Assembly (NCBI GenBank): GCA_003135135.1 | Contig: PLDK01000007.1 | Coordinates: 2,202-66,201 of the forward strand | Origin: Deltaproteobacteria bacterium | Lineage (GTDB): Bacteria > Desulfobacterota > Binatia > Binatales > Binataceae | Direction: 5' to 3' | Length of the DNA: 64,000 bases | Part shown: positions 3,471-23,040 of the stretch, piece after piece | Numbering within the stretch: position 1 is the first letter of the stretch | Layout of the letters: each line of letters begins with the position of its first letter | Translations under genes and position numbers: made by a program | The notes under the pieces: model-generated | Database searches by the model: none | Seen by the model: the letters and a program-made list of their open reading frames with translations, nothing else | Told to the model about the DNA's origin: nothing

Positions 3471-4361
3471 ATGCCTGCTCGCTCGATATCGACTGCAAGC
3501 CTGACCTTCGGATTAGTCTCGATACCGGTCCGTTTGTTTCCGGCTACGAGTTCAAAATCGGTCAGGTTCAACCTGCTTCACGAGAAGGACAAGAGCCGTA
3601 TCCAGGAAAAGATTTTCTGTCCGGTGGAAGAAAAGATCATCGACCGCAGCGAGTTGGTCAGGGGCTATGAGATCGAGAAGGGCCGTTACGTAACCTTCAC
3701 CGACGAGGAATTGAAAAAGCTCGAAGCGCAGGCCGATCGCGCGATCGAAATAGAAGAGTTTATCCCGGTCACCGAGGTAGATCCGGTGTACTTCGAGAAC
3801 TCATATTTGCTCGGATGCGAACCTACTTCGGCAAAGGCCTACCATCTGCTCAAGGAAGCGATGACAAAAGCGGGGCGGGTCGGACTCGCCAAGTTTACGA
3901 TGCTGGGCAAGGAACGTTTGGTGCTTATCCGGCCGCATGATGATGGCCTGATGCTTCATACGATGTACTACGAAGATGAGATTCGATCTTTCAAGGAGAT
4001 CGATCACGGGGCCGACGCTCCGGTCAAAGACTCAGAACTCTCGCTCGCGCAGCGTTTGATCGCGGACCTTACCCAGAAGAAGTTCGAGCCGGCGAAATAC
4101 AAGGACAACTATCGCGAACGGGTAATAGAGGCGGCCGAGCAGAAACTCGCGGGACACGAGGTCTCTGAGCCTACGCCGGAAGCGCGCCGTGGCAATGTGA
4201 TCGACCTGATGAGCGCTTTGAAGGCCTCGCTCAAAAAGCGCGGGGTCGCATTCAACGCCGAAGCTCAAGAGGAATCCGCGAAATCGTCCAAAGCGGAACC
4301 GTCGGAGGCTCTGGAACGCAAGGCTCAGCCGAAGCGATCGGGTTCTCGCGGCGCACGCTAG
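3471..4361 (+). CDS. ku: Ku protein (NHEJ DNA-end-binding)
   Basis: MPARSISTASLTFGLVSIPVRLFPAT... is the canonical bacterial Ku N-terminus. ATG at 3471 is preceded by GGAGG; the track's TTG at 3456 is probably not the true start. Basic C-terminal tail. Confidence 0.9.
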   Translation: MPARSISTASLTFGLVSIPVRLFPATSSKSVRFNLLHEKDKSRIQEKIFCPVEEKIIDRSELVRGYEIEKGRYVTFTDEELKKLEAQADRAIEIEEFIPVTEVDPVYFENSYLLGCEPTSAKAYHLLKEAMTKAGRVGLAKFTMLGKERLVLIRPHDDGLMLHTMYYEDEIRSFKEIDHGADAPVKDSELSLAQRLIADLTQKKFEPAKYKDNYRERVIEAAEQKLAGHEVSEPTPEARRGNVIDLMSALKASLKKRGVAFNAEAQEESAKSSKAEPSEALERKAQPKRSGSRGAR

Positions 4362-4433
4362 CGTCTGCCGGTTGATTGGCGGCGCGGTCGCGGCCAGCCC
4401 GATCTCAGATAATTCGACGCGCGGCGTCCCCCG

Positions 4434-7169
4434 ATGTCGCTGAGTAAATACCGCGAAAAACGGCACGCCGAGCGAACTCCAGAGCCGTTCGGGCATACCG
4501 TCCCGACTGGCCGCTCGGCGACCGGCGGGATCTTCGTCATCCAGAAACACGCCGCGCGGCGGCTTCACTACGATTTCCGGCTCGAGATGGAAGGCGTGCT
4601 CCGCTCGTGGGCGGTCCCCAAAGGTCCTTCGCTTAATCCGGCCGACAAGCGGCTTGCGGTCGCAGTAGAGGATCATCCGCTCGAATACGGCGACTTCGAA
4701 GGGGTTATTCCGGAAGGCAACTACGGCGCAGGTTCGGTTATCGTCTGGGATCGCGGCGTGTACGGCGTTCTGGAGGGCGAGGGGGGAGCGGCGCAGGGGA
4801 TACGCAACGGCAAAGTAGATATCAATCTCCACGGCTTCAAACTTGGCGGAGCGTTTACGCTGGTGCGGACCGGAGGGCGCCGCAATACCGCCCCAAAGGA
4901 CAAGCAAAACTGGCTGCTGATCAAGAAACGCGACGAATACGCCACGTCAGCCGACGTCCTCGAGGAGCATCCCCGTTCGGTGCTGTCGGGGTTGACGATC
5001 GACGAGATGCGCGATGCGCCGTCGGTGGGCCGGAAAGTTACCAGCCGACTCGTACAAGCGAAGCTCCCGGAACTCGCAAGTCCGGTGAAACGCGCCGATT
5101 TTCCGCTGATGCTGGCCAAGCTCGGCGGCGATCCTTTTGATAGTTCCGGCTGGCTGTTCGAACTCAAGTACGACGGCGTGCGCGCGCTTGCGATTCGTGA
5201 CGGCGCGACCGCCCATCTATACGCGCGCAGTGGAACCGAGATTACCGCGCGCTATCCGGAAGTCGTCCTCGCCTTGAATTCGCTGCCGTACGAACGATTT
5301 GTCCTCGACGGCGAAATCGTCGCGCACGGCGACGATGGCCGTCCGAGCTTTCAGTTGCTGCAACGCAGGATGCATGTGAATGACACGCGCCAGATCGCGC
5401 GTCTGAGCTTCGCGGTTCCGGTCCGCTATTTTGTTTTCGATCTTCTCGCCTTCGATCGTTTCGACACGCGAACGCTGCCACTCGAAGAGCGCAAGCATCG
5501 CGTAAGTGAACTAATCCTCGGCGAAGGTCCGGTGCGCTATTGCGACCACGTAGTCGAGCGGGGCAGAAATTTCTACGCGGCGGTCGCCGAGAAGGGGCTC
5601 GAGGGAATCGTCGGCAAATTGCGCAAGTCACCTTATCGCGGAGCGCGAAGCGGCGATTGGCTGAAGATCAAATGCCCGCAGATCCGGCGATTCGTGATTG
5701 GTGGTTACACAGCCCCTGAAGGATCGCGGACTCATTTCGGCGCGTTGCTGCTCGGTCAATACGAATCCGATGGCGCACTCCGCTACACGGACAAGGTCGG
5801 CACCGGCTTCAATCGCGATACTCTGCGCAAGATCCATGCGATGCTCGAAGAGCGCGCGCAATCGGCATCGCCATTTCGCAAGGCCGCCCTCGATGAGCCC
5901 GCGCCTGCAAGGACTGCGCGTTTCGTGCGACCGGAACTTGTCTGCGAGGTCAGGTTCACGGAGTGGACGAACAATGGAGGCGTCAGGCATCCCAGCTTTC
6001 TGCGCCTCGTCGAGGGTGCCGATCCGCGCGAATGCCGTTACGAGGGTCCCGAGCGCGATTCCGACCCGCCGGCGATAGTCGCCGAGCCTCGGGACGATCG
6101 CGGACCCACCGAGAAACATGCGGGAGATCGCGGAGTAGCTATCAGGCAGGCTGCCGAAGCCAACGTTGATGCCAACTCGAATGACATCAAGAAGGACCGC
6201 GCGAGCGGAGCTGCCACAACCGTGTCTCATCCGGATAAAATCTTCTTTCCCAGGGCGGGTTACACGAAAGGCGACCTGGTCGCGTACTATCGCGCGATTT
6301 CGAAATGGATGCTGCCCTATCTCAAGGATCGGCCCGTGATGCTCGCGCGATATCCCGATGGTATCGCGGGCAAGACGTTCTATCAGAAGGATGCGCCCGC
6401 GTTTGTACCATCGTGGATTCGTACTGAAAAGATTTGGTCCGAAGAGTCGAAGCGCGAGATCGGCTACTTCATTCTCGACACCGAGGAGGCTCTTGCGTAC
6501 GTCGCAAATCTTGCCGCAATCACGATTCACATCTGGTCGTCGCGCATCACTCACCTGGAACGTCCCGACTGGCTGCTGTTCGATATCGATCCGAAAGGCT
6601 CGACCACGCGACTGGCGGTCCAGGTGGCGCGCGAGACCGCCGCGGTTCTGCGCGAGGTGGGCCTCGAGCCATGCCTCAAGACCTCGGGCCAAATGGGGCT
6701 TCACGTGGTGGTGGGATTGGCGCCGAAATATACCTACGAGCAGGCAAGGATGTTCTCAGAACTGGTTGCGGAAATCGTGGTGCAAAGGATTCCTAAAATA
6801 GCGACCATCAATCGAAACCCGCGCTCGCGACAGGGCCGCGTCTATATCGACTACCTACAACTCGGTCACGGCAAGACTATCGCCGCGCCGTTCTCGGTGC
6901 GGCCCCTGGAGGGCGCGCCGGTTTCGGCGCCGATGAAGTGGGCGGAACTGAAACCGGCGCTCGACCCATCGGTTTATAACATCAAAACGATCCTGCCCCG
7001 GATGACGCGGCTCAAGCGCGATCCATTCCTCGACGCGCTCGAAAAACACGCCGATCTCGAAAGCGCGCTTGCCGAGCTCGAAGGTCTTCTGAACAGGAAT
7101 GAAAATCGAACCGGAGCTCGTACTACCAGCGCCAAGCACGACTTGAGCCGACAGGCTCGCGATCTCTAG
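4434..7169 (+). CDS. ligD: multidomain ATP-dependent DNA ligase D (phosphoesterase - ligase - polymerase/primase)
   Basis: N-terminal 3'-phosphoesterase domain (LSKYREKRHAERTPEP...HYDFRLE). Ligase domain with adenylation motif I ELKYDGVRAL. C-terminal LigD Pol domain (..HPDKIFFPRAGYTKGDLVAYY...DIDP...). Immediately downstream of ku. Confidence 0.9.
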   Translation: MSLSKYREKRHAERTPEPFGHTVPTGRSATGGIFVIQKHAARRLHYDFRLEMEGVLRSWAVPKGPSLNPADKRLAVAVEDHPLEYGDFEGVIPEGNYGAGSVIVWDRGVYGVLEGEGGAAQGIRNGKVDINLHGFKLGGAFTLVRTGGRRNTAPKDKQNWLLIKKRDEYATSADVLEEHPRSVLSGLTIDEMRDAPSVGRKVTSRLVQAKLPELASPVKRADFPLMLAKLGGDPFDSSGWLFELKYDGVRALAIRDGATAHLYARSGTEITARYPEVVLALNSLPYERFVLDGEIVAHGDDGRPSFQLLQRRMHVNDTRQIARLSFAVPVRYFVFDLLAFDRFDTRTLPLEERKHRVSELILGEGPVRYCDHVVERGRNFYAAVAEKGLEGIVGKLRKSPYRGARSGDWLKIKCPQIRRFVIGGYTAPEGSRTHFGALLLGQYESDGALRYTDKVGTGFNRDTLRKIHAMLEERAQSASPFRKAALDEPAPARTARFVRPELVCEVRFTEWTNNGGVRHPSFLRLVEGADPRECRYEGPERDSDPPAIVAEPRDDRGPTEKHAGDRGVAIRQAAEANVDANSNDIKKDRASGAATTVSHPDKIFFPRAGYTKGDLVAYYRAISKWMLPYLKDRPVMLARYPDGIAGKTFYQKDAPAFVPSWIRTEKIWSEESKREIGYFILDTEEALAYVANLAAITIHIWSSRITHLERPDWLLFDIDPKGSTTRLAVQVARETAAVLREVGLEPCLKTSGQMGLHVVVGLAPKYTYEQARMFSELVAEIVVQRIPKIATINRNPRSRQGRVYIDYLQLGHGKTIAAPFSVRPLEGAPVSAPMKWAELKPALDPSVYNIKTILPRMTRLKRDPFLDALEKHADLESALAELEGLLNRNENRTGARTTSAKHDLSRQARDL

Positions 7170-10200: not shown

Positions 10201-11538
10201 GTGAAACACATTTATGAGCGATATCTCGACCTCGGTTCCGTCCGGCTACTGAGGGGCAATTTGGAGCGCCACAGGATCGTCTCCAAAGTCCGGGTGTCGA
10301 AAAACGGCGTGCGATCGGGAGGCCGGCAATTTTCGCGCGGCGCTCTGTACCAGATGCTGTCGAACCCGATCTACCTGGGCGAAATTCGCCACAAAAAGGA
10401 ACGCCATCCGGGGCAACACGAGCCAATAGTGAGCCGCGAGCTCTGGGAGAACGTCCAGCAGCACTTGCGCGATCAGGCCGCCAAGCATCGCGAACGCCCG
10501 ACCAAGGCGCCGCACAGCCCGCTTGCGGGTAAACTGTTCGACGAGAGTGGCGAGCCCCTATATGTGCAGGGCGCGGTAAAAGGCGCTCGCCATTATCGCT
10601 ACTACGTCTCGCGCGGATTGGTCAGAGGGTCGGTACAAGATGACCAGCGCGGGTGGCGCGTAGCTGCACCGGAGCTTGAGCGCGCAGTTCGCGCTGCGAC
10701 TCAGCGGATTCTCGGTGATCGAGCGGCGATCGCTGGAGCGATTGAAGAACTCAACATCGATGCGAGCCGGTTGCCTTTGATATTCAAGGTCGCCGAAGCC
10801 TGGATTCAAAGCCTGCGGTCCGAAGCGGAAGCTGCACCAGTACTTACCCGGCTGATCGAACGCGTTCGACTCAAGCAGGACGGCATCGACGTTTCAATCA
10901 AATTGCCGATCCCATCCGATGAAGGGCGTGACGTCGCGACTCCGAACGAACTTGCGCTAACTCGATTCGTCCCGATGCGGATGAAGCGGCGCGGCGTTGA
11001 GATGCGTCTGATCATTGATGGTGACGCCACACCAACGGCTCGCGTCGATCTACCCCTGCTCAACGCGACCGCCCGCGCGTATCGATGGTCCAATGATCTG
11101 CTGACGGGCCGGGCGCGGTCGAGCGGCGAGATCGCGAGGCGAGAACATCTTACCGGCCGTCACGTGCGGCGCGTGATGCGGCTGGCGTTTCTGGCGCCCA
11201 GGATCGTCGAGGCGATCGCCACAGGCCGCCAGCCTGCGGACCTCTGCACTCTAGCAATGACCCAAAGAATCGAGCTGCCCCCCGCTCTGGAGCGCTCAGG
11301 AGCGAGCGCTCGACATCCGATAGACTCACGCGGGCGGAGTTGCTTGCGTTTAGGGGTACTTCCCGAGTACGTGATTCCCGCAAGATGTCGGCCGGTTCGC
11401 AGATGGACATGCCAAAATCGCGAACAGAGAATTTTGAGCGATTTTTGCCGTCAGCCGCGGCCGGTGGCATTCTCCCGGTCCACCGACGCGCGTGAATCGC
11501 GCCCCACGCGCCGATTTCATCACTTCTTCAAAATGTAG
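10201..11538 (+). pseudogene. large serine recombinase lacking the N-terminal catalytic resolvase domain (truncated or degraded)
   Basis: The recombinase-domain signature KHIYERYLDLGSVRLLRGNLERHRIVSK...IYLGEIRHK... is present. The frame is closed by TGA about 30 nt upstream (about 10168), and no intact Ser-nucleophile domain could be found in any frame of 9700-10200. Confidence 0.6.
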
Positions 11539-11598: not shown

Positions 11599-11805
11599 AA
11601 TTCCCTGATCATCAGGGAAAATACAGGGAATTTTCGCGATTTCGGGCGTTTTGGACCCGATTTCCAGCCTAAAAGTCCTTGTCTTCTCTCGGATTTTCGT
11701 CGGAATTCCCTACTCAACCGAACAGGGAATTATTCTGAAGGAACAGGGAATCTTTTCGACGTAACAGGGAATCTGATCCGGAGAACAGAGAAAGCCTCTT
11801 ACCGG
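11599..11805. repeat. iteron-like array of CAGGGAA(T) motifs with a 21-bp periodic core
   Basis: ACAGGGAAT direct copies at 11624, 11722, 11743 and 11764, and a degenerate ACAGAGAAA at 11785; the last four are spaced exactly 21 bp apart. A CAGGGAA copy sits at 11613, and inverted copies aattccctg / gaattccct at 11599 and 11703. Lies in the 560-bp gap between convergent genes. Confidence 0.6.
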
Positions 11806-12098: not shown

Positions 12099-15000
12099 CT
12101 ACGTCGTCCCCGCGGCGTCCGCCGTGACGAGCTTCAGCCGTGCGCTGCCATAGAGCGTGTACATGAGACCGAGCGGGTTGTTCTTCGCCAGCAGCAGGCG
12201 TCGCATGCGCAGCATGGCATCGCCTGCTGATTGACCGCCGATCAGTTCTTGGAGAAAAGACTTCGCCGCTTCCACGGCCAGCATCTCCACGATCGTCGTT
12301 TCGGTTCCGACGACGGCCGCCGCATGTTTCGCCCGAATGAACTCCCTGATGAACTCCGACGGCGCATACGGGTCGAATCCCACAGTGCTGCATCCGTTAA
12401 TGAAGACCAGCGGCGCATGAGTCCACACGGGCTTGCCGCCAAAGTCGGCGGGGAGGAGGACGTCCTCGACCACGCCCCTAAATCCGAGTCCGAAGTCAAG
12501 AGTCGACCCAAGGTCCTTCCCGTCCTTCGCCACGGTCTTGGCCAAGGCATGACAGTATAAGTAGACGATGTCAGGATCGTTGTTCTTCATGAGCGTTCGC
12601 ACGGCGGCGCGGCCGGTGCCTGACGTGACCTTCGCGTGCTTCAGGATCCCTTGCTCCAGATCCGCGACGTGTTTCGTGCCGAAGTCGAGCTTCTCGTTGT
12701 AGCCCGCCACCACGTTGATCTGCTCGCCGGCCTTGATCTCCTCGACGAGGCCCGTCGACTTCTCGCCGAGCCCATCGACCTTCTGCGCCGGTACGTCAAT
12801 AGGAAACATGAAGCCCCAAAAGCGGCGCGGACAGATCACCGTTTCCTCCGTGTAGACTGTCTTCCCGTTTCGACACAGTTCGTCGTTGTCGGCTTTGTTG
12901 AGAAGACATCCCGCGCCGCCACATTCGACGGCCGGCATGTTACCATTGGCGTCTGGCATCGGCGCTCGGCAGACTGACGGCGGCGCGGTCGTCTTGTCCA
13001 AAAAGACCACCCGGTCATAGATCATCGACCACGGAATCACGTTTGAAAAATCGAGGTGCGCCGCATGAATGCCGTCGCCCTTCTCGATCAGGCTTCGGAT
13101 CCTGTCCTGATCGTTCGGGTCGGGAACGAGCGCGTTGTAGATCCGCCAACCAGCGTAGGCGATGTCCGCCAGAACGTCACAAAGCTCCTGCGGGTCGCCG
13201 GCGTTTTCCGTGTTCTGGTACGACAGGTAGCGATAGGCCACGCCGCGTTGCGATGCCGTCTCCAGCGTCGTTCGCGCCCATTCGACGATCTTCGAAATGT
13301 CAACCTTGCCGACGCGGAAAAGGTCGTTGCCCTTGATCGTCGTGACCTTGTCGCCGGCGCTGTCGTTGACCACGACCGTCAGGCCTCGCGGGCTTCCGTG
13401 AGCACCGTCGGCAATGTTTGCGGTGGTGCCGTATTCGAGGCGCGTGATGTAGCCGGAGGTGCCGATCTTCTTTGCATCTGACGGCGGGACGCTGAGCGCA
13501 CGCGCCATGGCCGAAGCCACACTCCGCGGCGCATCCTCTAGCGCGGCGGCGACGAAAAACGACTGCACGACATTGTCGCGGTGATAGATCGTGAAGCGGA
13601 GCCGCGCCACGCCGGGCACGGTTGTCGGTTTGAACGGGCGAACGGCGAAGGCGATGAGATCGGACGGCTCTTCGCGAGGAAGATAGAACTCCTGCACCGG
13701 ATCTCCGATGACGTCGAAATCGATTCCCGTGACGCCGATTTCCATCCACGCGCCGTCGCCGTCCCACCGCACCTTCTCTTCGAGGAAGCTCGTGGGACCG
13801 AGCGAAACGATCAACTCGTCCTTCGGCCCGATCTGCACGCAGAAGTGAACCGCCTCACCGACTCGAAGACGAGCCTTCCGCTGCGGGATCTTCTTCAGTT
13901 TGCCGTCGGATCCGGTCGCGTAGAACGCGGAGTTGACCTGCCGCGGTACGCGGCGGGGCATCACCGCCTTTGGATCGCGGACGGCGTTCACCAGCGATCG
14001 CACGTCGGCGATCTTGGCCGCCAGCGGCAGCATGCCGCCCGACTCGTGGTCTTCGTAGTGATACGCGGCCGAACTGCGGACGATGTCGTCTATCTTCGTG
14101 GAGAAGATGTTCATCGCGCCTCTCCGGTTCATCGAGCGGAAGGGCTGCGATTTCGTGACAATGTACCCAGCGAGATCATCGACCGAGAGAACTTCCCCGC
14201 TCCCGCGCAGTTGCTCGAATTCGTAGCCGAGATCGATGCCCACCAAACCGTGTTGTGGCAGCTTCGCCGCCAACGAGTGACCGAATCGCTGCGCGCGCGA
14301 TCCCCACAGGTCGTCGAATCGAACGCCCTTCGCGTCGATGACGCCCATTTCCGTCGCCGACTCGACGATGGTGGATCTGATGGCGGCGGCGTCGATCGAA
14401 GGTCTATTCGGGATCTTCTGAGGAGAGACGAAGTGCGTGACGTAAGCCTTCTTGACCGAGGAAGCAACGCGAGGTTCGGAAAGCTCGCGAGCGACCACTG
14501 AATACCGCAGCGCCTCCTCGCCGCCGGCTCCCGCAAACAGCTCGCTTCTGGCGATCGCCGCGTGAATCCAGTCGAGCGGCCGGTCATGCGAAATAGCTCC
14601 GTACAACGTGTGGCTGGCGAGCGGGTCGTTGCCAAGGAAAAGGACCGCCGGCCCTCCCCGATCGATTATGGCCTGTGCCAGCCGGCGAAGCACCGGCGGC
14701 ACCGATTGGTGTCCGTCGAGGACGATCAGCCGGGTTTGAAAACGATCGGCGAAGCGGAGGAACCAGCCTGTGGTGCCGGCCGTGCTGTCGTGAGCGTTCG
14801 TGAGGAAACTCGTGGCGGCCGGCAGATCGTGTACGTGAAGGATGTCGACCGTGGCCCAAGACTCGCGCCGGGCGAAACTCTCGACGTCGAACAGCGTCGT
14901 GCGGGCGTCGATGTAGGCGTTTCCGCGAGCAGTGCCGTGAAATGTAGCGTCGATGGCCGCCGGAACCACCGGCGTTCCGTCTACCTCGAGCACGCGGATC

Positions 15001-15353
15001 GGGAACGTGATCGGGATCTGCAAGACGCGCGGACGAACCGGCGAAGTTCGAACGACGAGGCGACCGCCTACCTCGATTGATTCCCACTCCATCGCTGCCC
15101 AGTCGCGGACTCCGACCTCGACGGTTACTCGCTCCAGCGTCGATGTCTGCGAATGAGTCACTTCACTTGCCGAAATCGACTTACGAACGGCGTCACTCAG
15201 TTCCTTTGGAATTGCGGAGGCATGATCGATGAGATTGCGCGGCGTTCGGGTCTCCCATTTCGTTCCTTCTGGAGAGGCGATGGTCAGGACGGCGTCGCTG
15301 CCGTCGGCAAACAGGCGAACCGCAAAATCACGACGTTGATATATCGTCGACAT
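12099..15353 (-). CDS. 1084-aa protein with a C-terminal CHAT (caspase-like His/Cys) protease domain and an uncharacterised about 800-aa N-terminal region
   Basis: The C-terminal motifs ...DIVYLYCHALAKT... (His about aa 935) and ...PLVFINGCSTVGFD... (Cys about aa 988) match the CHAT/caspase catalytic dyad and spacing. A Cys cluster (ECGGAGC...CRNGK...ICPRRF) precedes the domain. No P-loop found. The ATG at 15351-15353 lies 3 nt from the stop of the upstream gene. Confidence 0.7.
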   Translation of the reverse strand: MSTIYQRRDFAVRLFADGSDAVLTIASPEGTKWETRTPRNLIDHASAIPKELSDAVRKSISASEVTHSQTSTLERVTVEVGVRDWAAMEWESIEVGGRLVVRTSPVRPRVLQIPITFPIRVLEVDGTPVVPAAIDATFHGTARGNAYIDARTTLFDVESFARRESWATVDILHVHDLPAATSFLTNAHDSTAGTTGWFLRFADRFQTRLIVLDGHQSVPPVLRRLAQAIIDRGGPAVLFLGNDPLASHTLYGAISHDRPLDWIHAAIARSELFAGAGGEEALRYSVVARELSEPRVASSVKKAYVTHFVSPQKIPNRPSIDAAAIRSTIVESATEMGVIDAKGVRFDDLWGSRAQRFGHSLAAKLPQHGLVGIDLGYEFEQLRGSGEVLSVDDLAGYIVTKSQPFRSMNRRGAMNIFSTKIDDIVRSSAAYHYEDHESGGMLPLAAKIADVRSLVNAVRDPKAVMPRRVPRQVNSAFYATGSDGKLKKIPQRKARLRVGEAVHFCVQIGPKDELIVSLGPTSFLEEKVRWDGDGAWMEIGVTGIDFDVIGDPVQEFYLPREEPSDLIAFAVRPFKPTTVPGVARLRFTIYHRDNVVQSFFVAAALEDAPRSVASAMARALSVPPSDAKKIGTSGYITRLEYGTTANIADGAHGSPRGLTVVVNDSAGDKVTTIKGNDLFRVGKVDISKIVEWARTTLETASQRGVAYRYLSYQNTENAGDPQELCDVLADIAYAGWRIYNALVPDPNDQDRIRSLIEKGDGIHAAHLDFSNVIPWSMIYDRVVFLDKTTAPPSVCRAPMPDANGNMPAVECGGAGCLLNKADNDELCRNGKTVYTEETVICPRRFWGFMFPIDVPAQKVDGLGEKSTGLVEEIKAGEQINVVAGYNEKLDFGTKHVADLEQGILKHAKVTSGTGRAAVRTLMKNNDPDIVYLYCHALAKTVAKDGKDLGSTLDFGLGFRGVVEDVLLPADFGGKPVWTHAPLVFINGCSTVGFDPYAPSEFIREFIRAKHAAAVVGTETTIVEMLAVEAAKSFLQELIGGQSAGDAMLRMRRLLLAKNNPLGLMYTLYGSARLKLVTADAAGTT

Positions 15354-15356
15354 GGG

Positions 15357-17525
15357 TCACCTTCGAAGCGCGGCCACTCCGGCATGCGAGAACTGATCGA
15401 TGGCGAAACCCCAGACGAACGCGGCGAGATAGTTCGCCGGTCCTCCCCATACCAGGTTGTCGATCCAGAGCACCTGTAGTCCGACAAGACATGCCGCGAC
15501 GACGACGATGACGCTGACGATGATGTCGTATCGTCCGATCTGCCGGGCCGTCGTCTTCTCTGTTCCCGACTGATCGAGTTCCGACGCCGGCGGACCGTAG
15601 CCAAAGGAACCGATCATGTCGAACGACGGCCCCCCTGGCGCCGCACCCAGTGCGGTCGCCGCAAGCGAAGCCAGCGCAGCCGACATCGTACCCATAGTCT
15701 GACCGGGGGCGGCGATGGCCTTTTCGTAGAGCTTCGCGGCCGCGTCGAGTTTGTTCAATCCGTCGGCGATGCTTTGCGCGACCGCCTCCTTCGCCGCTTC
15801 GGCGGCATCGATGATCGGCTTTCGCTTCGCGTCATCCGTGATGCTCGCTGCGGCGGATTGCTCAATGGCGTTGCTCAATCCCATGACGTACGGAACCGCC
15901 GCGGCGAAGAGTCGCGTCGTGGCATCGTCCGGATCCTTGGTCGCGGAGACAATCGTCGCCGCCGTGGTGGTCTGCCGCTTCAAAGCGTCCCATTCGTTCG
16001 GATTCATTCCCGCGGGCGACGTCGTCGAGCCGGACACGCGTTTGATTAATTCGTCGGCGAGGATGATCGCGTAGCGAAGGCGCGCCGCCTCCACCAACCG
16101 GATAGCTTCCTCGATATTGTCGTGCGCAAGCTTCTCAGACGCGGCCTCGAGGGAGGTGGCGATTTCATGCACGCTCGCTTGTGGATACTGCGCAAGCTTG
16201 GCAGTGAGATCGTCGACCTGCTTCTTCAGCCTTTCCTTGATCTTGGTTCGGATTTTCTGTGGAAGCGCGCTGACGTCGCTGATGGCCGATTGCACCTTGG
16301 TGGCATCCGGATTTGGGTTCTTGAACGCGGCCTCGGCATCTTCCAGCGTCGGCATGAGTTCGTCGCGCACTTCGAGCGGCCGGACCTCGCGCACCTGCTT
16401 GTGCAGTTGAATCCAGGAGCCGAGCGCCGGCACGATCAGTTCGAACACATCGAGCTCGGTCGTAATCGCGCGCCGCCGCGTTTGCGCGTCATCCCAGCGC
16501 TGCTGGACGTTTTTGCGAACGACGCCGACGAGCTCCTCGGCGTCGGCGTCACCAGTGGCGCGTGCCGATTCGTCGCGCAGCATCAACAGAATGGTGGTCA
16601 TTCGCTGCTGGGCGAGCAGCCGTGGACGGAGCGTACTGCCGTAGATCAGTACCACCAGCGAAAGGCCCACGCCAACGACGATGAAGAAGATCGCGACCCA
16701 GAAGGGGTCGCGGACGTAGATCGTGAACGGCTTACTGATCGGCTGGAAACCGGCAGGCGCGAAGCGGATGGTGCCGTCGTACCTTCCGGGCGAGGCGAGA
16801 CCGTCGATCCCCAGCTCAAGCGGCGTCGGCTCACCCGGCACGACCGTGATGGGGTCCGGCACATTTTGCAGATCGAGCTTTATATTCGAGACTAGCGATC
16901 CGGATACCGAGTCGGCCTTCGGCTTGCGCGTCACGTCGTCGAGGAACGGCCGGCTCACTCTGACCTCGGCGCCGGTAGCGTAGATCGTCATTGTCAGAGG
17001 GACATGCAACGACGTGCGGTATGGACAGGAAGTTCGCTCCACCGCCGCGATGTCGCTGATGGCGATCGGCGGAGCGGCGGTCGTCCGAGCGATCTCGATC
17101 GAAAAGCGGAGGAGCGTATTCGGGGCCCGCAGCCGAGCTTTATTGTTCCTCGGAACGGTCCGCTGCGAGATCGTGACCGTTCCCGTGTAGGTGCCGGCGT
17201 TCAAGAGCCTGACCCTTAACTTCACCGTCAGCGGGACCCCAACGGCGATGTCGAACGGCCCCTTCGGATCGGATTCAGGCACGGCAGCGTCTCCCGCTGG
17301 TGAGTGGAGATCGGTGCCCTGAACCTCGACGCCCCTCAGAACACTGGTTGTCTGGTTCTCGATCGTCAGAGAAATGGCGAGATCGGGGGTGGTAACGCCA
17401 GCAAACTTTAGCTCCTTCGACGCGGGGAGCTCTAGCACAGCAACCGGCTCTTTCGTGGCCGCGTTCGCGAATAGCGCCGTCGACACGAGAAGCGTGCAGA
17501 TCAACGGCACAAGAACTCTCGACAT
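15357..17525 (-). CDS. large membrane protein: signal peptide, about 330-aa beta-rich extracytoplasmic region, one TM, about 300-aa cytoplasmic helical region, two C-terminal TMs
   Basis: Start MSRVLVPLICTLLVSTALFANA with GGAGGA 4 nt upstream (ATG at 17523-17525); the track ORF extends further upstream without support. TM segments: WVAIFFIVVGVGLSLVVLIYG, IIVSVIVVVAACLVGLQVLWI, YLAAFVWGFAI. Stop/start nearly abutting the CHAT gene. Confidence 0.6.
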   Translation of the reverse strand: MSRVLVPLICTLLVSTALFANAATKEPVAVLELPASKELKFAGVTTPDLAISLTIENQTTSVLRGVEVQGTDLHSPAGDAAVPESDPKGPFDIAVGVPLTVKLRVRLLNAGTYTGTVTISQRTVPRNNKARLRAPNTLLRFSIEIARTTAAPPIAISDIAAVERTSCPYRTSLHVPLTMTIYATGAEVRVSRPFLDDVTRKPKADSVSGSLVSNIKLDLQNVPDPITVVPGEPTPLELGIDGLASPGRYDGTIRFAPAGFQPISKPFTIYVRDPFWVAIFFIVVGVGLSLVVLIYGSTLRPRLLAQQRMTTILLMLRDESARATGDADAEELVGVVRKNVQQRWDDAQTRRRAITTELDVFELIVPALGSWIQLHKQVREVRPLEVRDELMPTLEDAEAAFKNPNPDATKVQSAISDVSALPQKIRTKIKERLKKQVDDLTAKLAQYPQASVHEIATSLEAASEKLAHDNIEEAIRLVEAARLRYAIILADELIKRVSGSTTSPAGMNPNEWDALKRQTTTAATIVSATKDPDDATTRLFAAAVPYVMGLSNAIEQSAAASITDDAKRKPIIDAAEAAKEAVAQSIADGLNKLDAAAKLYEKAIAAPGQTMGTMSAALASLAATALGAAPGGPSFDMIGSFGYGPPASELDQSGTEKTTARQIGRYDIIVSVIVVVAACLVGLQVLWIDNLVWGGPANYLAAFVWGFAIDQFSHAGVAALRR

Positions 17526-17804
17526 GAGCTCCTCCAAAATATGGACGCGGCGCTTAGCTGATGTGCGCTGTGTCTGGGAGCCGCGGCTGCAATCTAGCCC
17601 ACGCGGCCATTGGGATTCAAATCTGTGTGCGGTTGACAAAACCGGTCGCCAATTGCGTGTAAATACCAGAGTGACAGTACATGATCGGGCCGCTCTCGAA
17701 CGCGCTTGGTGCCGGCGGAGAGGCGCGCCGTCTCGTCGAGACACTCGCGATAGCTGGCATGATCTTCTCAAGACATACGACGGTCTATTGGTCTAGTCAT
17801 TGTC

Positions 17805-18128
17805 CTAGGCCGAGGCGGCAGTTGCAGCTACCTTCGCCAATGCTGCAATCACTTGGGCGATTTGTCCTATGGCAGCGGCGACTTTGGCCTCGTCTGCCTG
17901 TGCCTGCTTGACCGTCTGAGTTGCATTTTGAACGGCAGTAACGGCGTCCTTGTATTCTTGCTTCGTTTCGTCGGGTATTTTGTCGGCGAGACTACCGAGT
18001 TGTAACGATAGCTGTTGCAGTTGGCCTGCCAATTGGGCTTTTTTGGCTGGATCCTGAGTCTGCTGATAAAGCACCCATGTTTGATTGATCAACTCAGGCA
18101 CGACATTTGGATCGGACAGCTTTGACAC
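17805..18128 (-). CDS. small helical protein (107 aa) with a hydrophobic Ala-rich C-terminus
   Basis: ORF in the operon between the lipoprotein and the large membrane protein. Q/A/K-rich predicted coiled-coil sequence ending IAQVIAALAKVAATAASA. Confidence 0.4.
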   Translation of the reverse strand: MSKLSDPNVVPELINQTWVLYQQTQDPAKKAQLAGQLQQLSLQLGSLADKIPDETKQEYKDAVTAVQNATQTVKQAQADEAKVAAAIGQIAQVIAALAKVAATAASA

Positions 18129-18175
18129 GAGTTTTCCCCTATCTCATAGATTTGTGACGGCCTTCGGCATTGTTC

Positions 18176-19129
18176 CTATTTCAAGCTTTTAATGTTCGAC
18201 GTTGCCTGCTGTGCGCTTGCGTAGAAATCCTCAATGTCTTTGATCTCAAAGGTCGTATTCTGAAGCGCGTTCTCCAAGGCTGTGTTCGCTGCAATACAAG
18301 CGCTGCTGCTCTTTTCGATTTGAGGGAATGTGGTACCAGCCTCATCCAAGTTTTGTTCGCCGAGCAAGTAGGCGTTCAGACTATCGGAGCGCGCAAGCCG
18401 ATCGCGAGGATTTAACGAGATCGCTGTTTCCGAAGTGGCCGCTAGAATTCGCGCAGTAGTCTGGAAACGAAATGCGAAATTATCCTTTGGCGTTTGAGTT
18501 CCAGTAGCAAGAAAGAAATTGTCCCGCACCGTTCCACAGATAACAGGCACTGCATCTTTGGTGGCTGCTACCACGGACCGGATTGCGTGCGCTTTCATGT
18601 CGTCGAGGAACCATTCTGTTAGTTGCTGGGCAATTGCGCTAATCGCATCAGAGCTTGCATTCGCCACTGGCGATCCGGGAATTGCTTTTAGCGCGGCAGC
18701 GAGAGCGTCTGACGACTTCTTGATTTGGTCTTTGTTGTCTGCGTTCATAATTCCCGTGAGCGCGGTACCGTAAGCTTTCATCGCCTGCGGACCCGAAAGA
18801 AAGGTCACGTACCAGTCGCCTGAAAAGTCGCCTGCGAGATTCTTATATTCGCAGGGTTGTCCCTTCTCACCGCAGCTGCTGATGTAAGTCAGGATGATCG
18901 GATCGGTGTTCGGGGCGAGATACTTCTTTGGAAGATCGGGCACCCGGTAGAGCGCTACATTCATCGCGATAGTCTGATCTTTCATCTTCACGAGTTCAGT
19001 CGATGATGCGTCCCCGAACTTGGTTGCCGCATCCGCGAATTTCGAGGTTGCGTCGCGTTGAGCAGCGGTGAGCCCGCAGCCACTCACGCATAGAGCCAGC
19101 AGAAGTAACAAACAACGGCATTTTGTCAT
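18176..19129 (-). CDS. lipoprotein, unknown function
   Basis: MTKCRCLLLLLALCVSGCG gives lipobox VSGC. ATG at 19127-19129. Visibly AT-richer than the surrounding sequence. Confidence 0.55.
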   Translation of the reverse strand: MTKCRCLLLLLALCVSGCGLTAAQRDATSKFADAATKFGDASSTELVKMKDQTIAMNVALYRVPDLPKKYLAPNTDPIILTYISSCGEKGQPCEYKNLAGDFSGDWYVTFLSGPQAMKAYGTALTGIMNADNKDQIKKSSDALAAALKAIPGSPVANASSDAISAIAQQLTEWFLDDMKAHAIRSVVAATKDAVPVICGTVRDNFFLATGTQTPKDNFAFRFQTTARILAATSETAISLNPRDRLARSDSLNAYLLGEQNLDEAGTTFPQIEKSSSACIAANTALENALQNTTFEIKDIEDFYASAQQATSNIKSLK

Positions 19130-19250
19130 ACGATTTCCTATATTTATCTCGTGCGTTATGCGGTTGTCGACCCGAGGCGATTCCTCTTTGACGGAAACCT
19201 GGAGTATCAAGAACCTGTTTCAGACCCGCTATTGATTCGGGTGCGATTCA

Positions 19251-20960
19251 TCACTCGAGCGACCTCAGAAAACTCCCCACAAAAAGCTTGATCTGCCACT
19301 CGAGCATCGCTTTCACCCATAATCGTTCGAGGACGGGTAAGGTATTGACGGCCGAGTCGATGATCGTGTTGAGGCGATCCTGCACTCGCTGGATCTGCGC
19401 AGGGTTGATTTCCGGAGCAGGAGGCACAGGCTGAAGCTGCTGGTTCGGCAATATCAGGAATTGCCGCGTTTCTTTGGTTTGCACCGCCTGCCAGACCTCC
19501 AGAGCGTCTGCGACACCTTGCGCGAAATCGTGCATGCGAATGCCAACGTCGAAGAAGCCGCTGAACGCGTATAGGGGATCGCCGGCAAGCTTCATTTTTG
19601 GACTGACGAGAATAGGCTCGAATGCGACCTTGTCGGTCACATCCATCGCAAGATCGATTAGCAGACCAAATTCGATGAATAGCTGCTGTCGGTCCGGCGG
19701 CAGGCTCCGTGCCCCGCCATAAGCGACGGGAGCTTCCACTTGGAGGTCGGAAATAAAGTGCGCGCGGAAGTAGTTCATTTGCTCCTCACTCAGGCCACGC
19801 GCGGCGCCGAGCTTGTTGACCATTTCCGGCAGCCACGAAGGAGTCGTTAGATCGCCCGAAGTGACATGGATGTAATATTCCAGTTGTGCGACCAGGTCCT
19901 GACGTATCTTTACGCGGCGATTCACCTCGGGGATTCCGCGTACCCCCGACTGCTGTACTTCCTCGAGCGCTCCGCCGAGTATGCGGCCGACCATCTGAAA
20001 TGGATCGACGTTCAGCATGTTGGTGCCATCCAGGAATTGCGGATTCGCCGGCCAGTCGTCTGGGTCTTGACCCGGTTCGGGTTCGATCATGAAGTAGCGC
20101 CGTTCTGTATCGCTAAAGTCGTCAGCATCAGCTCCCCAGTCGATCTCGTGCGCGAGGTTTATCGCCTGCCCGACGGGGTCGTTGTCGTACAACCCGCCGT
20201 CCGTGAAGTAGTCTAGGTTCCAGTTCTTCTGATCGTCCATGAGGGCGAGAGCTCTCGGCGCGAATGCGAAGGGAAAAGCTCCACAGGCGATGGCGCATGC
20301 TATCATTCCGGCAAATGCGCCATTGGAATCGAGAAGAGTTCCGCTCGCGGGTTGTGAGATCGACGATACACCGTCTCCTGTGAAGGTTGCTCCAAGTACG
20401 CCCTCCGTGTTTGGCTTCACACGGATGTCAAATCGCGAAAGAGCAGCGTGCTCGTTGAAAAAGAATTCTGTGCCGGTAAAGGTGGGCACGGTCTGCAGGC
20501 CTTGGCCCAGCCGCGAATGCGTCAACGCCAGAGCGATGTGAGCGCCCCCCGAACTTAATGGGTCACGTAAAACAGAATGGCATGCGACTGTGTTGGGATA
20601 TTTGATGTAGTCACTTGCTATTTTGTCGATTGCGCCCGATACGAATAGAAAATTCGGAGAAAGCCCGGCTCCGTTCTGTGGATCCAATATGTCGAGTGAG
20701 ATCTGATCAACCCACACCGTCTTCAGCACATTCTTGTCCGGCGCCTGGCCGGCAAGTGAACTGTTGAGCAGGACCATGGCGAGCAGGGTCGCCGTCATTC
20801 CCCCCGCGCTGGCCCCGGTGAGCGCATCTATGTACCACTTCACTGAGTTATTTCGATTGTTATAGTCCAAGAGAAATAGCGTCTCAGCGATGACGCCAGC
20901 CTCGTATGCTCCCAAGGAAACACCACCTTTTATTGCGATCGCCAGCCTACGCTCCGGCAT
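19251..20960 (-). CDS. patatin-like phospholipase (Ser-Asp dyad)
   Basis: Oxyanion/Gly motif IKGGVSLGAYEAGV, nucleophile motif LTGASAGGM (GxSxG), catalytic Asp motif FTDGGLYDNDP. 569 aa with a long C-terminal extension. Confidence 0.8.
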   Translation of the reverse strand: MPERRLAIAIKGGVSLGAYEAGVIAETLFLLDYNNRNNSVKWYIDALTGASAGGMTATLLAMVLLNSSLAGQAPDKNVLKTVWVDQISLDILDPQNGAGLSPNFLFVSGAIDKIASDYIKYPNTVACHSVLRDPLSSGGAHIALALTHSRLGQGLQTVPTFTGTEFFFNEHAALSRFDIRVKPNTEGVLGATFTGDGVSSISQPASGTLLDSNGAFAGMIACAIACGAFPFAFAPRALALMDDQKNWNLDYFTDGGLYDNDPVGQAINLAHEIDWGADADDFSDTERRYFMIEPEPGQDPDDWPANPQFLDGTNMLNVDPFQMVGRILGGALEEVQQSGVRGIPEVNRRVKIRQDLVAQLEYYIHVTSGDLTTPSWLPEMVNKLGAARGLSEEQMNYFRAHFISDLQVEAPVAYGGARSLPPDRQQLFIEFGLLIDLAMDVTDKVAFEPILVSPKMKLAGDPLYAFSGFFDVGIRMHDFAQGVADALEVWQAVQTKETRQFLILPNQQLQPVPPAPEINPAQIQRVQDRLNTIIDSAVNTLPVLERLWVKAMLEWQIKLFVGSFLRSLE

Positions 20961-21002
20961 AATTGTTCCTCGGGTGTTTCAATCTGCCTTCCGTGGGTCG
21001 AC

Positions 21003-21983
21003 TCAATAGGAGAAAGGCAGTGTGTTGCTATTTAGACCGTTGACTGTGACACCGATTTGAACGCGTTTGCCCGCAACCCATGCGGGTCCAGAGAGATTCA
21101 GCGCCGGAAGATTCAGGGTAATCTCGCTGTCAGCCCACGCACCCGACGGCACCGGCGTACCGTCAAGCGTGACCGTACTCCCGCCCGTAGACGCGCCGAA
21201 TCCATTCCCGAGAATCTTGATCGCCAAGGGCTTGCCGCTGCCGGTTGAGGGAGAAAGCCCTGTCACGACAGGGACGCTGCTAAAAGTGAGTTTGTTGAAA
21301 ACGTAGGTGCCGTGGCCGATTCCCATCAATACTGCGAGCGCCTCATCGATATCAGGGAGGCTTTTCAGGCCCGGCTTTGGCCCGTAAACGTGCTCGTAGA
21401 CGCTTACCAGAAAAATTCCCAATGCAACGAATGTCCATGCCAGCATCTGGAACTTGACCAGATCGGGATCACCGCCGTCGTTCGTAATCAGATCCGAAAG
21501 GCTTTGCCCGTCGGGCGCGGTCGGTTTGGCGACCTTGCCGGAACTTACGTAACTGCTGGTGATTCCCTTTGCGGCCACTGCGGTAGCACTCGAAAAGCCC
21601 ATCGCCAGCAAGAGCCCCGGTGGAAAGGTGTCGATCGGCTCGAATGTCTGCTGTTTGACTCTGGCCACGGTGATCACGACATAAGCGAAGATCGCGACAG
21701 CGGTCCACAGCCAGAACTGAAACTTTGATGTACTAGCGCGTCCGTCCTCACCCTCGACGAGTTTCCACGGGTGATTTCCGGTAATTGCGAGATGGAGCAA
21801 CCACAGCAGGACCATTGCGATGAAGCCGCATATGAATGGCCGATCGAGGTACCATTGCAAAGTCTGATCACGCCAGCGCTCGGGCACCAGCGCAATCATC
21901 GCACCCACGGAGGCCGCGACCAGCAGCGACAGGGCTAAACCCGCTTGCGTAGGCAGGTTTTTCGGGCTCATTGTCACCACCAC
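21003..21983 (-). CDS. polytopic membrane protein with a C-terminal IPT/TIG (Ig-like) domain
   Basis: Four or five predicted TMs. The C-terminal PVVTGLSPSTGSGKPLAIKILGNGFGASTGGSTVTLDGTPV... is a typical IPT/TIG beta-sandwich. Alternative ATG start at 21971 (MSPKNL). Confidence 0.55.
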   Translation of the reverse strand: MVVTMSPKNLPTQAGLALSLLVAASVGAMIALVPERWRDQTLQWYLDRPFICGFIAMVLLWLLHLAITGNHPWKLVEGEDGRASTSKFQFWLWTAVAIFAYVVITVARVKQQTFEPIDTFPPGLLLAMGFSSATAVAAKGITSSYVSSGKVAKPTAPDGQSLSDLITNDGGDPDLVKFQMLAWTFVALGIFLVSVYEHVYGPKPGLKSLPDIDEALAVLMGIGHGTYVFNKLTFSSVPVVTGLSPSTGSGKPLAIKILGNGFGASTGGSTVTLDGTPVPSGAWADSEITLNLPALNLSGPAWVAGKRVQIGVTVNGLNSNTLPFSY

Positions 21984-22201
21984 TTTCTGGCGAGCGGCCT
22001 CCCGGTCCCATCCTCAAATTGACCGCCCCTTCCTAATACGGCGGAGTTTCTAGCATTCGGGCCGAGATAATGGAAGCAGAAAGTGTATCTCCATTAGCGA
22101 AGTGTTAACACCCGTCACTGCATCTGAGCGGCGCGATGAATCATAGGCTGAGTCGAAAACTGGTTCGACCATGCGGGCGATCAGTCACAACACACCGTCA
22201 G

Positions 22202-22483
22202 TCACAACAAAAGGCAATCTGTTGAAGAGGAACAGCCTCGGATCAGGTAGCTATTTTTGCCGTCGAAAGGCCTCAGCTGGTCCTTGCGTGCGCGTTCGGC
22301 TTCGGCAATGAGCGTGGACAGCTTCTTTCCAACGGCGCGGGCGACTCGCTCGACAACGTCGATGGTCGGCTTGCGGTCGCGGCGCTCCAGGAAAACGACG
22401 TAGGTGTGGTGGCTGCCGGCCCGGCCGGCAATGGCGTAATTAAGCCACTGAGGGCGGGAAACTAAGACACTCAATACGCACAT
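22202..22483 (-). CDS. XRE-family HTH transcriptional regulator
   Basis: ..LNYAIAGRAGSHHTYVVFLERRDRKPTIDVVERVARAVGKKLSTL.. fits the XRE helix-turn-helix pattern. Sits at the head of the minus-strand operon and is divergent from 22660. Confidence 0.55.
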   Translation of the reverse strand: MCVLSVLVSRPQWLNYAIAGRAGSHHTYVVFLERRDRKPTIDVVERVARAVGKKLSTLIAEAERARKDQLRPFDGKNSYLIRGCSSSTDCLLL

Positions 22484-22659
22484 TACTTCATGCTTCTATG
22501 CGTCATTCGGATCGTGCTCGACTTCGCAGATTTCCGAAGATTCTACGGTATCACCGGTTTGAAAACCTGGCCGATCTACGCAATAACAGCTCCATGAATG
22601 AATAGCGCCGATCGACCGCGAAGTCAGGCAGACAGCACACGTAAACACGAAGACTGAAC

Positions 22660-23040
22660 ATGAAGCCCCGCCACGCTCTCACAATGACGCATTGCCCCCA
22701 CTGCGGAGCGAGGATCGTGCCCACGCCGAGAGAACTCAAGCAGTGGCGAAAGGCTGCCGGTTTGACGCAGCGCAAGATCGCTGCGCTTCTCAAGATCACT
22801 GCTGCGCATGTCACCTATCTGGAGCGCGGGAAACGATCACCCAGCACGGCTCTGATCGCGCGCTATTGGAAATTCGCGCCCCACACTTCGGCGTTCGAGC
22901 TGACCGAACGTCAACGCCAAGTTACGCAACTGCGAAGCATGCGTCTTACCTACGCTGCCATTGGCAGACAACTCGGCATCAGTGCAGAACGGGTGAGACA
23001 GATCGAAATGCGGCTACTGCGCCGCGTCCGTTTGAGTTAA
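22660..23040 (+). CDS. two-HTH regulator: N-terminal XRE-like HTH plus C-terminal sigma-70 region-4-like HTH
   Basis: N-terminus: Cys/His pair CPHCG, then LTQRKIAALLKITAAHVTYLERGKRSP. C-terminus: LTERQRQVTQLRSMRLTYAAIGRQLGISAERVRQIEMRLLRRVR. A paralogous C-terminal module occurs at 28001-28228. Confidence 0.55.
   Translation: MKPRHALTMTHCPHCGARIVPTPRELKQWRKAAGLTQRKIAALLKITAAHVTYLERGKRSPSTALIARYWKFAPHTSAFELTERQRQVTQLRSMRLTYAAIGRQLGISAERVRQIEMRLLRRVRLS

Follow-up and report, generated by a model that had tools for sequence, protein, structure and literature searches.

A conserved gene pair encoding a membrane protein and a predicted CHAT/separase-like cysteine protease, with a separate gene cluster beside it, in a deltaproteobacterial contig

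Gene Content of the Locus

The DNA analyzed here (the window) is a stretch of 64,000 nucleotides (nt) from a Deltaproteobacteria bacterium (assembly GCA_003135135.1, contig PLDK01000007.1), and all coordinates count from its first letter. A first-pass annotation, made from the letters alone, had described seven minus-strand open reading frames (ORFs) between positions 12099 and 22483 as one candidate operon of the conflict or defense type, and all seven are present. The last two in the direction of transcription are the subject of this report. The first gene of this pair (15357..17525, minus strand) encodes a 722-amino-acid (aa) inner-membrane protein, named MEM here, and the second (12099..15353, minus strand) encodes a 1084-aa CHAT/separase-like cysteine protease that is predicted to be cytoplasmic. 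Upstream, behind an intergenic gap of 279 nt (17526..17804, minus strand) that probably holds the promoter of the pair, lie genes for a small helical protein, a lipoprotein, a patatin-like phospholipase, a membrane protein with an IPT/TIG domain, and a possible helix-turn-helix (HTH) protein. We found that the seven genes are two separate things, a MEM–protease module and an adjacent cluster of different origin; the first-pass annotation was largely right in its details and wrong in its boundaries.

Conservation of the MEM–Protease Pair

Loci with protease relatives were pooled from a one-genome-per-species scan (10 loci), a metagenome scan (223 confirmed protease relatives, 79 loci kept), and exact look-ups. 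In each fetched neighborhood, a gene of about 710–880 aa without Pfam domains stood immediately upstream of the protease gene, and tblastn and profile searches identified it as a MEM homolog. For a stricter count, we kept loci with a full-length protease gene and upstream sequence that were non-redundant at 90% identity; MEM lay immediately upstream of the protease in 41 of these 41 loci, with gaps of 3–10 nt or overlaps. Conservation of the CHAT/membrane-protein pair, a check that the first-pass annotation had proposed, was thereby confirmed. The close coupling of the two genes noted earlier was also correct: in the window, 3 nt separate the MEM stop codon from the protease start codon (TGA-CCC-ATG), and an AGG-rich stretch lies immediately upstream. 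The MEM homologs were collected through protease-anchored loci, and a word-indexed search with MEM itself, as a single sequence and as a profile, gave 7–8 close relatives only.

The two proteins have also diverged together. Pairwise distances among MEM sequences correlated with those among the proteases (r = 0.93; Mantel test, 0/2000 permutations). Clustering of the other flanking ORFs of the 41 loci revealed no recurrent neighbor besides the pair, and the proposed seven-gene operon did not hold, since MEM and the protease alone were conserved together. More distant relatives, which have just the C-terminal CHAT part in common with the protease, had different N-termini and no MEM, indicating that it is the protease's N-terminal half to which MEM is tied. 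These results suggest that MEM and the protease almost certainly form a conserved two-gene functional unit.

Full-length homologs of the protease were found at 35–99% identity. A profile search of 1.84 billion representative sequences returned 1119 matches at E ≤ 1e-30, which shows that the family is sizeable; among the 150 matches listed, all below 1e-99, most were about 1000 aa long. The family comprises hundreds of clusters at 50% identity in at least four phyla, and its members are named 'hypothetical' or 'CHAT domain-containing' in the source databases. The hosts belong to Acidobacteriota, Pseudomonadota, Bacteroidota, and Actinomycetota, together with a metagenome-assembled genome (MAG) titled 'delta proteobacterium'; the species-level scan placed its loci in Acidobacteriota, Pseudorhodoferax, a Chitinophaga MAG, Amycolatopsis, and the 'delta proteobacterium' MAG.

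The upstream boundary of the unit is visible in the related loci as well. In at least 24 of 44, the 350 nt ahead of MEM contained no gene in the same direction, and in the window the 279-nt gap ends in a strong Shine–Dalgarno sequence of MEM's own (the start was taken as the ATG with GGAGGAG ahead). Where co-directional genes do precede MEM, these cassettes vary by lineage: genes for a 521-aa and a 197-aa protein in loci L099 and L024, and one for a Big_1/invasin lipoprotein in L007. A further cassette, observed in L008 (3230–7780), L101 (3295–7783), and L022 (3064–7779), encodes a protein of about 1290 aa that weakly matches Secretin_N, together with a conserved cytoplasmic protein of 222 aa. 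Two candidates were rejected. The 564-aa and 112-aa genes upstream of MEM in L007 were compared as possible counterparts of the patatin and the small gene of the window, and showed no correspondence. An apparent MEM–protease fusion in L053 (7268–12751; an ORF of 1827 aa, also seen as P0144 with 1824 aa) has its transmembrane (TM) hairpin in another frame and is probably a frameshift or assembly artifact; it was left out of the evidence.

Domain Architecture of the Protease

We modeled the protease with AlphaFold from 26 sequences, with a predicted local distance difference test (pLDDT) score of 86 and a predicted template modeling (pTM) score of 0.84. The model contains, in order, a small N-terminal β domain, an α/β domain (about aa 71–290), a helical domain (aa 291–460) that is variable and often shortened in relatives, a β-sandwich (aa 470–605), and a C-terminal region (aa 610–1078). 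The N-terminal stretch of about 800 residues, earlier held to match nothing recognizable, is therefore made up of several domains in the model, one of them a probable pseudo-CHAT domain.

The C-terminal, separase-like protease region is encoded by 12120..13526 (minus strand), with the His935 codon at 12549–12551 and the Cys988 codon at 12390–12392. We aligned 43 protease sequences of 27–46% identity (alignment A4) and found that H935 (in YCHA) and C988 (in NGCST), 53 residues apart as the first-pass annotation had seen, are both invariant. In the model, the two residues sit at the ends of β-strands (residues 929–937 and 982–988), as in caspase-fold proteases. Fold comparison matched the protease to separase, Csx29, DdvA, gingipain, and metacaspases, and this resemblance to solved CHAT and separase structures assigns it to the caspase-hemoglobinase fold. 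By sequence, the Pfam CHAT match of the window protease itself fell below the threshold (14.8 vs. 24 bits, E = 0.02), whereas 38 of the 43 relatives matched Pfam CHAT at E ≤ 0.1 (best 2.8e-17) and 14 of them also matched Peptidase_C25. CHAT membership of the window protease is thus established at the level of family and fold only. The protein is likely to be an active cysteine protease.

The protease region carries a Cys-rich insertion (aa 795–841; 12831..12971, minus strand) without regular secondary structure in the model. Its four cysteines, C795, C811, C816, and C841, are invariant in A4, and the insertion is probably a structural metal site.

No Walker A motif was found in the protease, in agreement with the earlier statement that it lacks a P-loop, and neither a signal peptide nor a TM segment was detected, which places it in the cytoplasm. 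Pfam searches of the 43 relatives detected no STAND NTPase, SAVED, or TPR domain, and profiles of the protease, like those of MEM, found no match by sequence in the PDB.

The N-terminal α/β domain (aa 71–290; 14484..15143, minus strand) is probably a degenerate CHAT domain that has lost its nucleophile, as judged from a full-profile alignment and from the fold. The family profile aligned about 240 residues of this domain to the CHAT domain of an unrelated protein encoded beside the pair in L033 (independent E-value 1.4e-8), and this L033 protein in turn gives a match to the CHAT portion of SAVED-CHAT. In this alignment, 'LHVH', retained in the window protease, falls at the position of the canonical His motif, and 'TRLIVLDGHQS' replaces the Cys motif 'LVFVNACRS', so that the catalytic Cys is lost. 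Three points weigh against this assignment: it depends on a single profile-to-sequence alignment, the hhalign comparison of the domain with the protein's own C-terminal protease domain was not significant, and a hidden Markov model of the N-terminal domain alone did not recover the L033 CHAT protein.

Other CHAT proteins were seen in the same data. Proteins of 1212–1222 aa in L092 (7190–10828) and L093 (1365–5033) have a CHAT domain related to the window protease family and an N-terminus that looks chaperonin-like by eye (AKEVIYGSDSR...ILRGVN).

Predicted Topology of MEM

The first-pass annotation had read MEM as a protein with a signal peptide, a β-rich ectodomain, a TM segment, a helical domain, and two terminal TM segments, and both the structural model and the hydropathy profile bear this out. 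A cleavable signal peptide is followed by two immunoglobulin-like (Ig-like) β-sandwiches (aa 37–272), a first TM segment (TM1, aa 275–297), a helical domain (aa 300–604), a disordered linker of about 60 residues (aa 605–664; nt 15534–15713), and a TM hairpin (aa 665–722; nt 15360–15533) ending in LRR. Model confidence was moderate (pLDDT 68), and the model agreed with secondary structure and hydropathy. An Arg-rich stretch (RPRL) comes after TM1; the positive-inside rule puts the Ig-like domains in the periplasm and the helical domain of about 300 residues in the cytoplasm. The TM segments were the most conserved parts of MEM, with a mean pairwise identity of 0.38–0.40 compared to 0.20–0.23 elsewhere, and hold Gly, Ser, and Trp residues that are invariant or nearly so. 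The MEM family set (window MEM and 16 homologs, n = 17) matched no Pfam family and no relevant PADLOC model.

The Neighboring Gene Cluster

The genes upstream of the pair differ from it in several respects. Immediately beyond the 279-nt gap, all on the minus strand, lie genes for a 107-aa Ala/Gln-rich helical protein (17805..18128; GC content at third codon positions, GC3, 0.53), a 317-aa lipoprotein with the lipobox LCVSGC (18176..19129; GC3 0.57), a 569-aa patatin-like phospholipase (19251..20960), a 322-aa multi-pass membrane protein with a C-terminal IPT/TIG domain (21003..21971), and a 93-aa ORF with a weak, partial XRE-type HTH (22202..22483). The seven genes had been called tightly packed, which they are not: gaps of 279 nt (small gene to MEM), 230 nt (HTH to TIG gene), and 121 nt separate them. 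The lower-GC island into which all seven had been placed exists for the four genes upstream of the pair (GC 0.52–0.57, GC3 0.53–0.67) and not for the pair (GC 0.62, GC3 0.76–0.77), which lies above the window mean of 0.59. In addition, the TIG, patatin, lipoprotein, small, and HTH genes were found with the pair only in L006, a metagenome contig 99% identical to the window region. We set the cluster apart from the pair because of this restricted co-occurrence, the difference in GC3, and the gap with MEM's own Shine–Dalgarno sequence.

Among the seven window proteins, only the patatin-like protein (50.5 bits; Pfam cut-off 27.7) and the TIG protein (37.2 bits, 3e-9) passed Pfam thresholds, and PADLOC and NCBIfam gave nothing significant. 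The intact Ser-Asp dyad and the TIG domain described earlier were both found, as was the lipobox of the lipoprotein. The score over the threshold, the catalytic dyad (Ser51 in GASAG, G49-A-S51-A-G, and Asp254 in D254-G-G), and an intact Gly-rich oxyanion loop (G12-G-V-S-L-G) identify the first of these as a patatin-like phospholipase of PF01734; it has a C-terminal extension of about 300 aa, and a sequence search of the PDB with it was empty. The lipoprotein had no match in Pfam, PDB, or PADLOC. For the 107-aa helical protein we observed a weak match to part of the α-pore-forming toxin subunit MakE (E = 8e-5; 21.8 bits against a cut-off of 360). The TIG membrane protein has four hydrophobic segments, and its TM region has homologs in L016 (E = 1e-15), in L070, and on two plasmids. 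These last, one each on plasmids of Streptomyces aurantiacus (L107, 7593–9176) and Gloeothece PCC 7822 (L108, 7602–8684), lie in regions rich in mobile or defense genes, with neighbors that include insertion sequence (IS) elements, a methylase, helicases, a toxin–antitoxin pair, and a type III-B CRISPR module.

An XRE repressor had been placed at the head of the block. The HTH_3 match of the 93-aa ORF covers profile positions 15–53 at 19.7 bits, below the cut-off of 23, and its PADLOC matches, to C-protein/CapH-like models, are weak (about 6e-5), so that only a partial, sub-threshold domain remains of this claim. The clear regulator at this boundary, as judged from profile matches, is instead the divergent gene at 22717..23040 (plus strand), also called in L006, which encodes a 107-aa protein with an XRE HTH and sigma-70 region 4 (HTH_31 3.4e-11, HTH_3 2e-10, Sigma70_r4 1.6e-11). 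The two HTH genes in 22202–23040 lie on opposite strands, 233 nt apart, an arrangement that resembles a mobile-element switch. Scans of the locus for promoter and terminator consensus sequences gave hits at chance level.

Beyond the 3′ end of the protease gene, two of the flanking features named in the first-pass annotation were recovered. A truncated large serine recombinase (10201..11538, plus strand) lacks the N-terminal catalytic domain, its Pfam Recombinase domain beginning at residue 2, and a 21-nt tandem repeat of about 3.5 copies (11720..11792, Tandem Repeats Finder) lies between it and the protease gene. Elsewhere in the window, we noted an rve-type IS integrase (855–1943), a non-homologous end-joining gene pair of Ku and LigD (ligase, primase-polymerase, phosphoesterase; 3456–7169), and three tandem pectate-lyase-like (RHGA/epimerase) genes (30314–34800; GC 0.52–0.56, GC3 about 0.55). 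The last are followed by higher-GC glycosyltransferase/epimerase genes and possibly belong to an acquired surface-polysaccharide cluster.

Phospholipases near the Pair

Of 45 independent loci, about 5 have a phospholipase gene, for either a patatin or a PF04185 (phospholipase C-type) enzyme, close to the pair: patatins in the window, L002, and L019/L048, and PF04185 phospholipases in L016 and L025. The patatins beside the pair are not of one family, nor do they share a strand, and the L016 protease is only 32% identical to that of the window. By a rough estimate, this frequency is above chance, the comparison being post hoc and the genes heterogeneous. A facultative functional link of the pair with phospholipases is possible.

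Two of the loci showed a related arrangement. In L016 (428–7322), a co-directional array encodes a TIG-TM-like membrane protein, a C13 caspase-fold peptidase, a PF04185 phospholipase, and a 519-aa protein, and then MEM and the protease. In L070 (9140–16645), the same phospholipase, 519-aa protein, and TM protein lie beside a distant 488-aa CHAT protein. The gene set shared by L016 and L070 may be a module in its own right.

Genomic Context and Mobility

The neighborhoods of the pair were unrelated to one another across distant phyla. Some of them look like defense or mobile loci, such as one with GmrSD and a transposase fragment, and strong PADLOC matches among the flanking proteins (150 proteins, 36 loci) were to a type IIG restriction-modification enzyme, a ZorD/DpdE-like helicase, PDC-S01, and MzaB. 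The recombinase arrangement of the window is repeated in L006 and L103–L105, a homolog of the recombinase lies 7.6 kb from the pair in L013, and the window sequence is present in the MAG assemblies GCA_003152635.1 and GCA_003153535.1. A megablast search of plasmids with the whole block gave no match. Beside the pair in L099 (9025–17711), we observed a second CHAT protein of 1208 aa with a DUF900 hydrolase and a ThiF/Prok-JAB/YukD ubiquitin-like cluster, a region that looks like a defense island.

Horizontal acquisition and a defense context, both proposed earlier, were thus supported in part, by the patchy distribution over phyla and by some mobile or defense loci, but other loci were metabolic or regulatory and no full-length plasmid or phage copies were found. 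The overall pattern fits a horizontally transferred accessory module.

Comparison with Known Systems

It is becoming clear that bacterial immunity often uses caspase-family proteases as executioners. We compared the window protease with solved relatives and found that eukaryotic separase shares its His-Cys dyad on consecutive strand ends. The separase structures 5FBY and 5FC2 reportedly contain a pseudo-protease domain (PPD) beside the active protease domain (APD) in a large multi-domain protein, a combination probably shared by the window protease. In the window protease, by contrast, the pseudo-CHAT domain lies N-terminal, about 400 residues upstream of the active region, and there is neither a helical-repeat superhelix nor a securin-type partner. 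It also differs from separase in being bacterial, in being paired with a membrane protein, and in its additional four-Cys insertion, and sequence identity is 8–11%.

Unlike Csx29 TPR-CHAT (Craspase) and SAVED-CHAT, the window protease has no TPR or SAVED domain. The partner of the CRISPR CHAT proteases is a ribonucleoprotein or a cyclic nucleotide, whereas that of the window protease is a membrane protein; no cas genes occurred in the ten Pfam-annotated neighborhoods of the pair. DdvA is a transmembrane anti-sigma factor that carries a periplasmic TPR-CHAT and a cytoplasmic zinc anti-sigma domain on one TM polypeptide and has an extracytoplasmic function (ECF) sigma factor as its output (PMC11506125). 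The window protease, in contrast, is a protein of its own in the cytoplasm that lacks both a signal peptide and TM segments, and the genes around it include no conserved sigma factor.

That regulated caspase-like proteases serve as defense effectors is well established (PMC12642450; 10.1101/2024.10.24.620036). In the protease–effector modules, the partners are gasdermins, Pepco/Trypco, EACC1, metallo-β-lactamase (MBL) hydrolases, and α/β hydrolases (PMC12642450). The pair resembles these modules in that a protease adjoins a possibly membrane-active partner, and the logic would be the proteolytic licensing of a lethal effector. It differs from them in that MEM is a 720-aa integral membrane protein, is encoded upstream, and has no similarity to those effectors; moreover, the window protease is not fused to STAND or another known sensor, and there is no recurrent third gene. 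In Kiwa, the membrane sensor KwaA and the cytoplasmic effector KwaB respond to phage-caused membrane changes (PMC11785009). The likeness to Kiwa lies in the two-gene design only: no homology was detected, and the effector of the pair would be a cysteine protease. Type IV Thoeris uses a caspase-like protease that needs a TIR protein and N7-cyclic ADP-ribose (N7-cADPR) (10.1101/2024.10.24.620036). As there, the caspase-fold protease of the pair could be a promiscuous cell-arresting effector, and no TIR gene lies beside the pair. The neighboring patatin shares the fold and the Ser-Asp dyad with CapV of the cyclic-oligonucleotide-based anti-phage signaling system (CBASS), but scores 12.8 bits against the NCBIfam CBASS_lipase cut-off of 200 and has the long C-terminal extension; none of the seven ORFs resembles a nucleotide cyclase.

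Our literature searches found no description of the MEM–protease pair. Neither protein has a PADLOC model or a PDB match by sequence, and Pfam offers no family for MEM or for the protease's N-terminal half. As far as these searches go, the pair appears to be undescribed, which upholds the earlier suggestion of an undescribed caspase-like-protease system. In kind, it belongs with the caspase-family proteases that act under regulation in prokaryotic conflict systems; the partner and the arrangement of domains are new.

Proposed Role of the Pair and Alternative Explanations

The invariant catalytic dyad, the patchy distribution, the variable and in part mobile contexts, the GC3 difference, and the precedent of caspase-like effectors all argue for a defense reading, and we give a conflict or defense role of the pair an even chance. 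With the same degree of belief, the best overall explanation of the locus is a mobile, membrane-coupled protease module, plausibly of an abortive-infection-like type, next to an unrelated cluster. The gene pair, its conservation and co-divergence, the fold, the catalytic residues, and the topology are observed; from them we infer activity, interaction, trigger, substrate, and biological role.

A possible sequence of events can be drawn by analogy, and we offer it tentatively. MEM would hold or regulate the protease at the membrane and sense a perturbation of the envelope or periplasm, such as phage attack. TM1 and the helical domain would relay the signal to the regulatory, N-terminal half of the protease, which would license the C-terminal active site. 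The protease might then cut MEM, for example in the linker 605–664, freeing a membrane-damaging form, or cut cellular proteins, leading to arrest or death. A broader, similarly speculative version is an envelope-sensing immune module in which an Ig-like receptor detects attack, unleashes the tandem pseudo/active-CHAT protease, and in some lineages arms neighboring phospholipases.

Several results weigh against a defense role and this scheme. PADLOC matched neither protein over the 43 protease and 17 MEM family members. Many loci lie among ordinary metabolic or regulatory genes, and the defense-model matches in the 150 flanking proteins were few as raw counts. Neither tblastn of the protease and MEM nor a viral-contig scan turned up a full-length relative on phages, viral contigs, or plasmids. 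As to the mechanism, the MEM linker has no conserved motif, though it is the proposed cleavage site, and MEM has no conspicuously hypervariable region of the kind that a pathogen sensor might show.

In another reading, the pair is a non-defense signaling or maintenance device, a membrane receptor with a processing protease for envelope stress, development, or surface remodeling. In several loci, the surrounding genes code for two-component systems, ECF sigma factors, kinases, transporters, or metabolic functions, and in some lineages co-directional genes for envelope proteins (lipoproteins, secretin-N-like, Big_1) stand upstream. The missing PADLOC match and the missing phage or plasmid copies would suit such a device too, and HetF is a CHAT protein with a non-defense role (PMC8406250). 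However, the pair is rare and patchy across distant phyla without a conserved neighborhood, no transcription or sigma factor is conserved with it as an output, some loci are clearly mobile or defense-related, and the window copy has an atypical composition and a recombinase remnant next to it. We regard a signaling device as doubtful.

It is rather unlikely that MEM is itself the effector, with the protease sensing a cytoplasmic cue through its N-terminal domains and cutting MEM into a pore, as in the logic of gasdermin, Pepco, or EACC1. The conservation of the TM hairpin and TM1, with their invariant Gly, Ser, and Trp residues, and the disordered cytoplasmic linker ahead of the hairpin would suit a pore-former, and adjacent pairs of protease and pore-former are common in defense (PMC12642450). 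Yet known latent pore-formers are small, whereas MEM has 720 aa, is already membrane-integrated, and carries large periplasmic Ig-like domains; the linker lacks a conserved cleavage motif, and the protease has no recognizable sensor (STAND NTPase, SAVED, or TPR).

The reading closest to the first-pass annotation, that all seven genes are one XRE-regulated system in which the protease works with the lipase, lipoprotein, and membrane proteins, for example by activating a lipase zymogen, is improbable. It draws on the common minus-strand direction of the genes, on the recurrence of phospholipases near the pair (window, L002, L019/L048, L016, L025), on L016, where the order of TIG-TM-like protein, phospholipase, and then MEM and CHAT protease is repeated in one direction, and on documented protease-activated hydrolase zymogens in defense (PMC12642450). 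It is contradicted by the five extra genes, which accompany the pair in the 99%-identical contig only, nothing besides the pair being common to the 41 loci, and by the loci (at least 24 of 44) without a co-directional upstream gene. The step in GC3 from 0.53–0.67 to 0.77, the 279-nt gap with the strong Shine–Dalgarno sequence of MEM, the different families and strands of the patatins, and the lineage-specific upstream cassettes also argue against it. Very improbable is a role in secretion or adhesion, with the pair as part of an apparatus that spans the envelope and the protease as its maturation enzyme: the weak Secretin_N protein of about 1290 aa and the 222-aa protein precede the pair in L008, L101, and L022, and Ig-like/Big_1 proteins and lipoproteins do so in other loci, but such neighbors are lineage-specific and missing from most loci, no secretion ATPase or core component recurs, and the protease is cytoplasmic.

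Even if the membrane-coupled protease module should not serve in defense, the pair is a sizeable family without present functional annotation. MEM would enter the catalog as an unannotated protein family, alongside an architecture with a pseudo and an active CHAT domain in tandem, and with two genes and clear catalytic residues the pair is a directly testable module. To our knowledge, the known caspase-family immune proteases are switched on by cytoplasmic sensors, namely CRISPR complexes, cyclic nucleotides, TIR products, or STAND NTPases. Conserved pairing with an Ig-like membrane protein of its own would give a separase-like protease a different input route, linking envelope events to regulated proteolysis.

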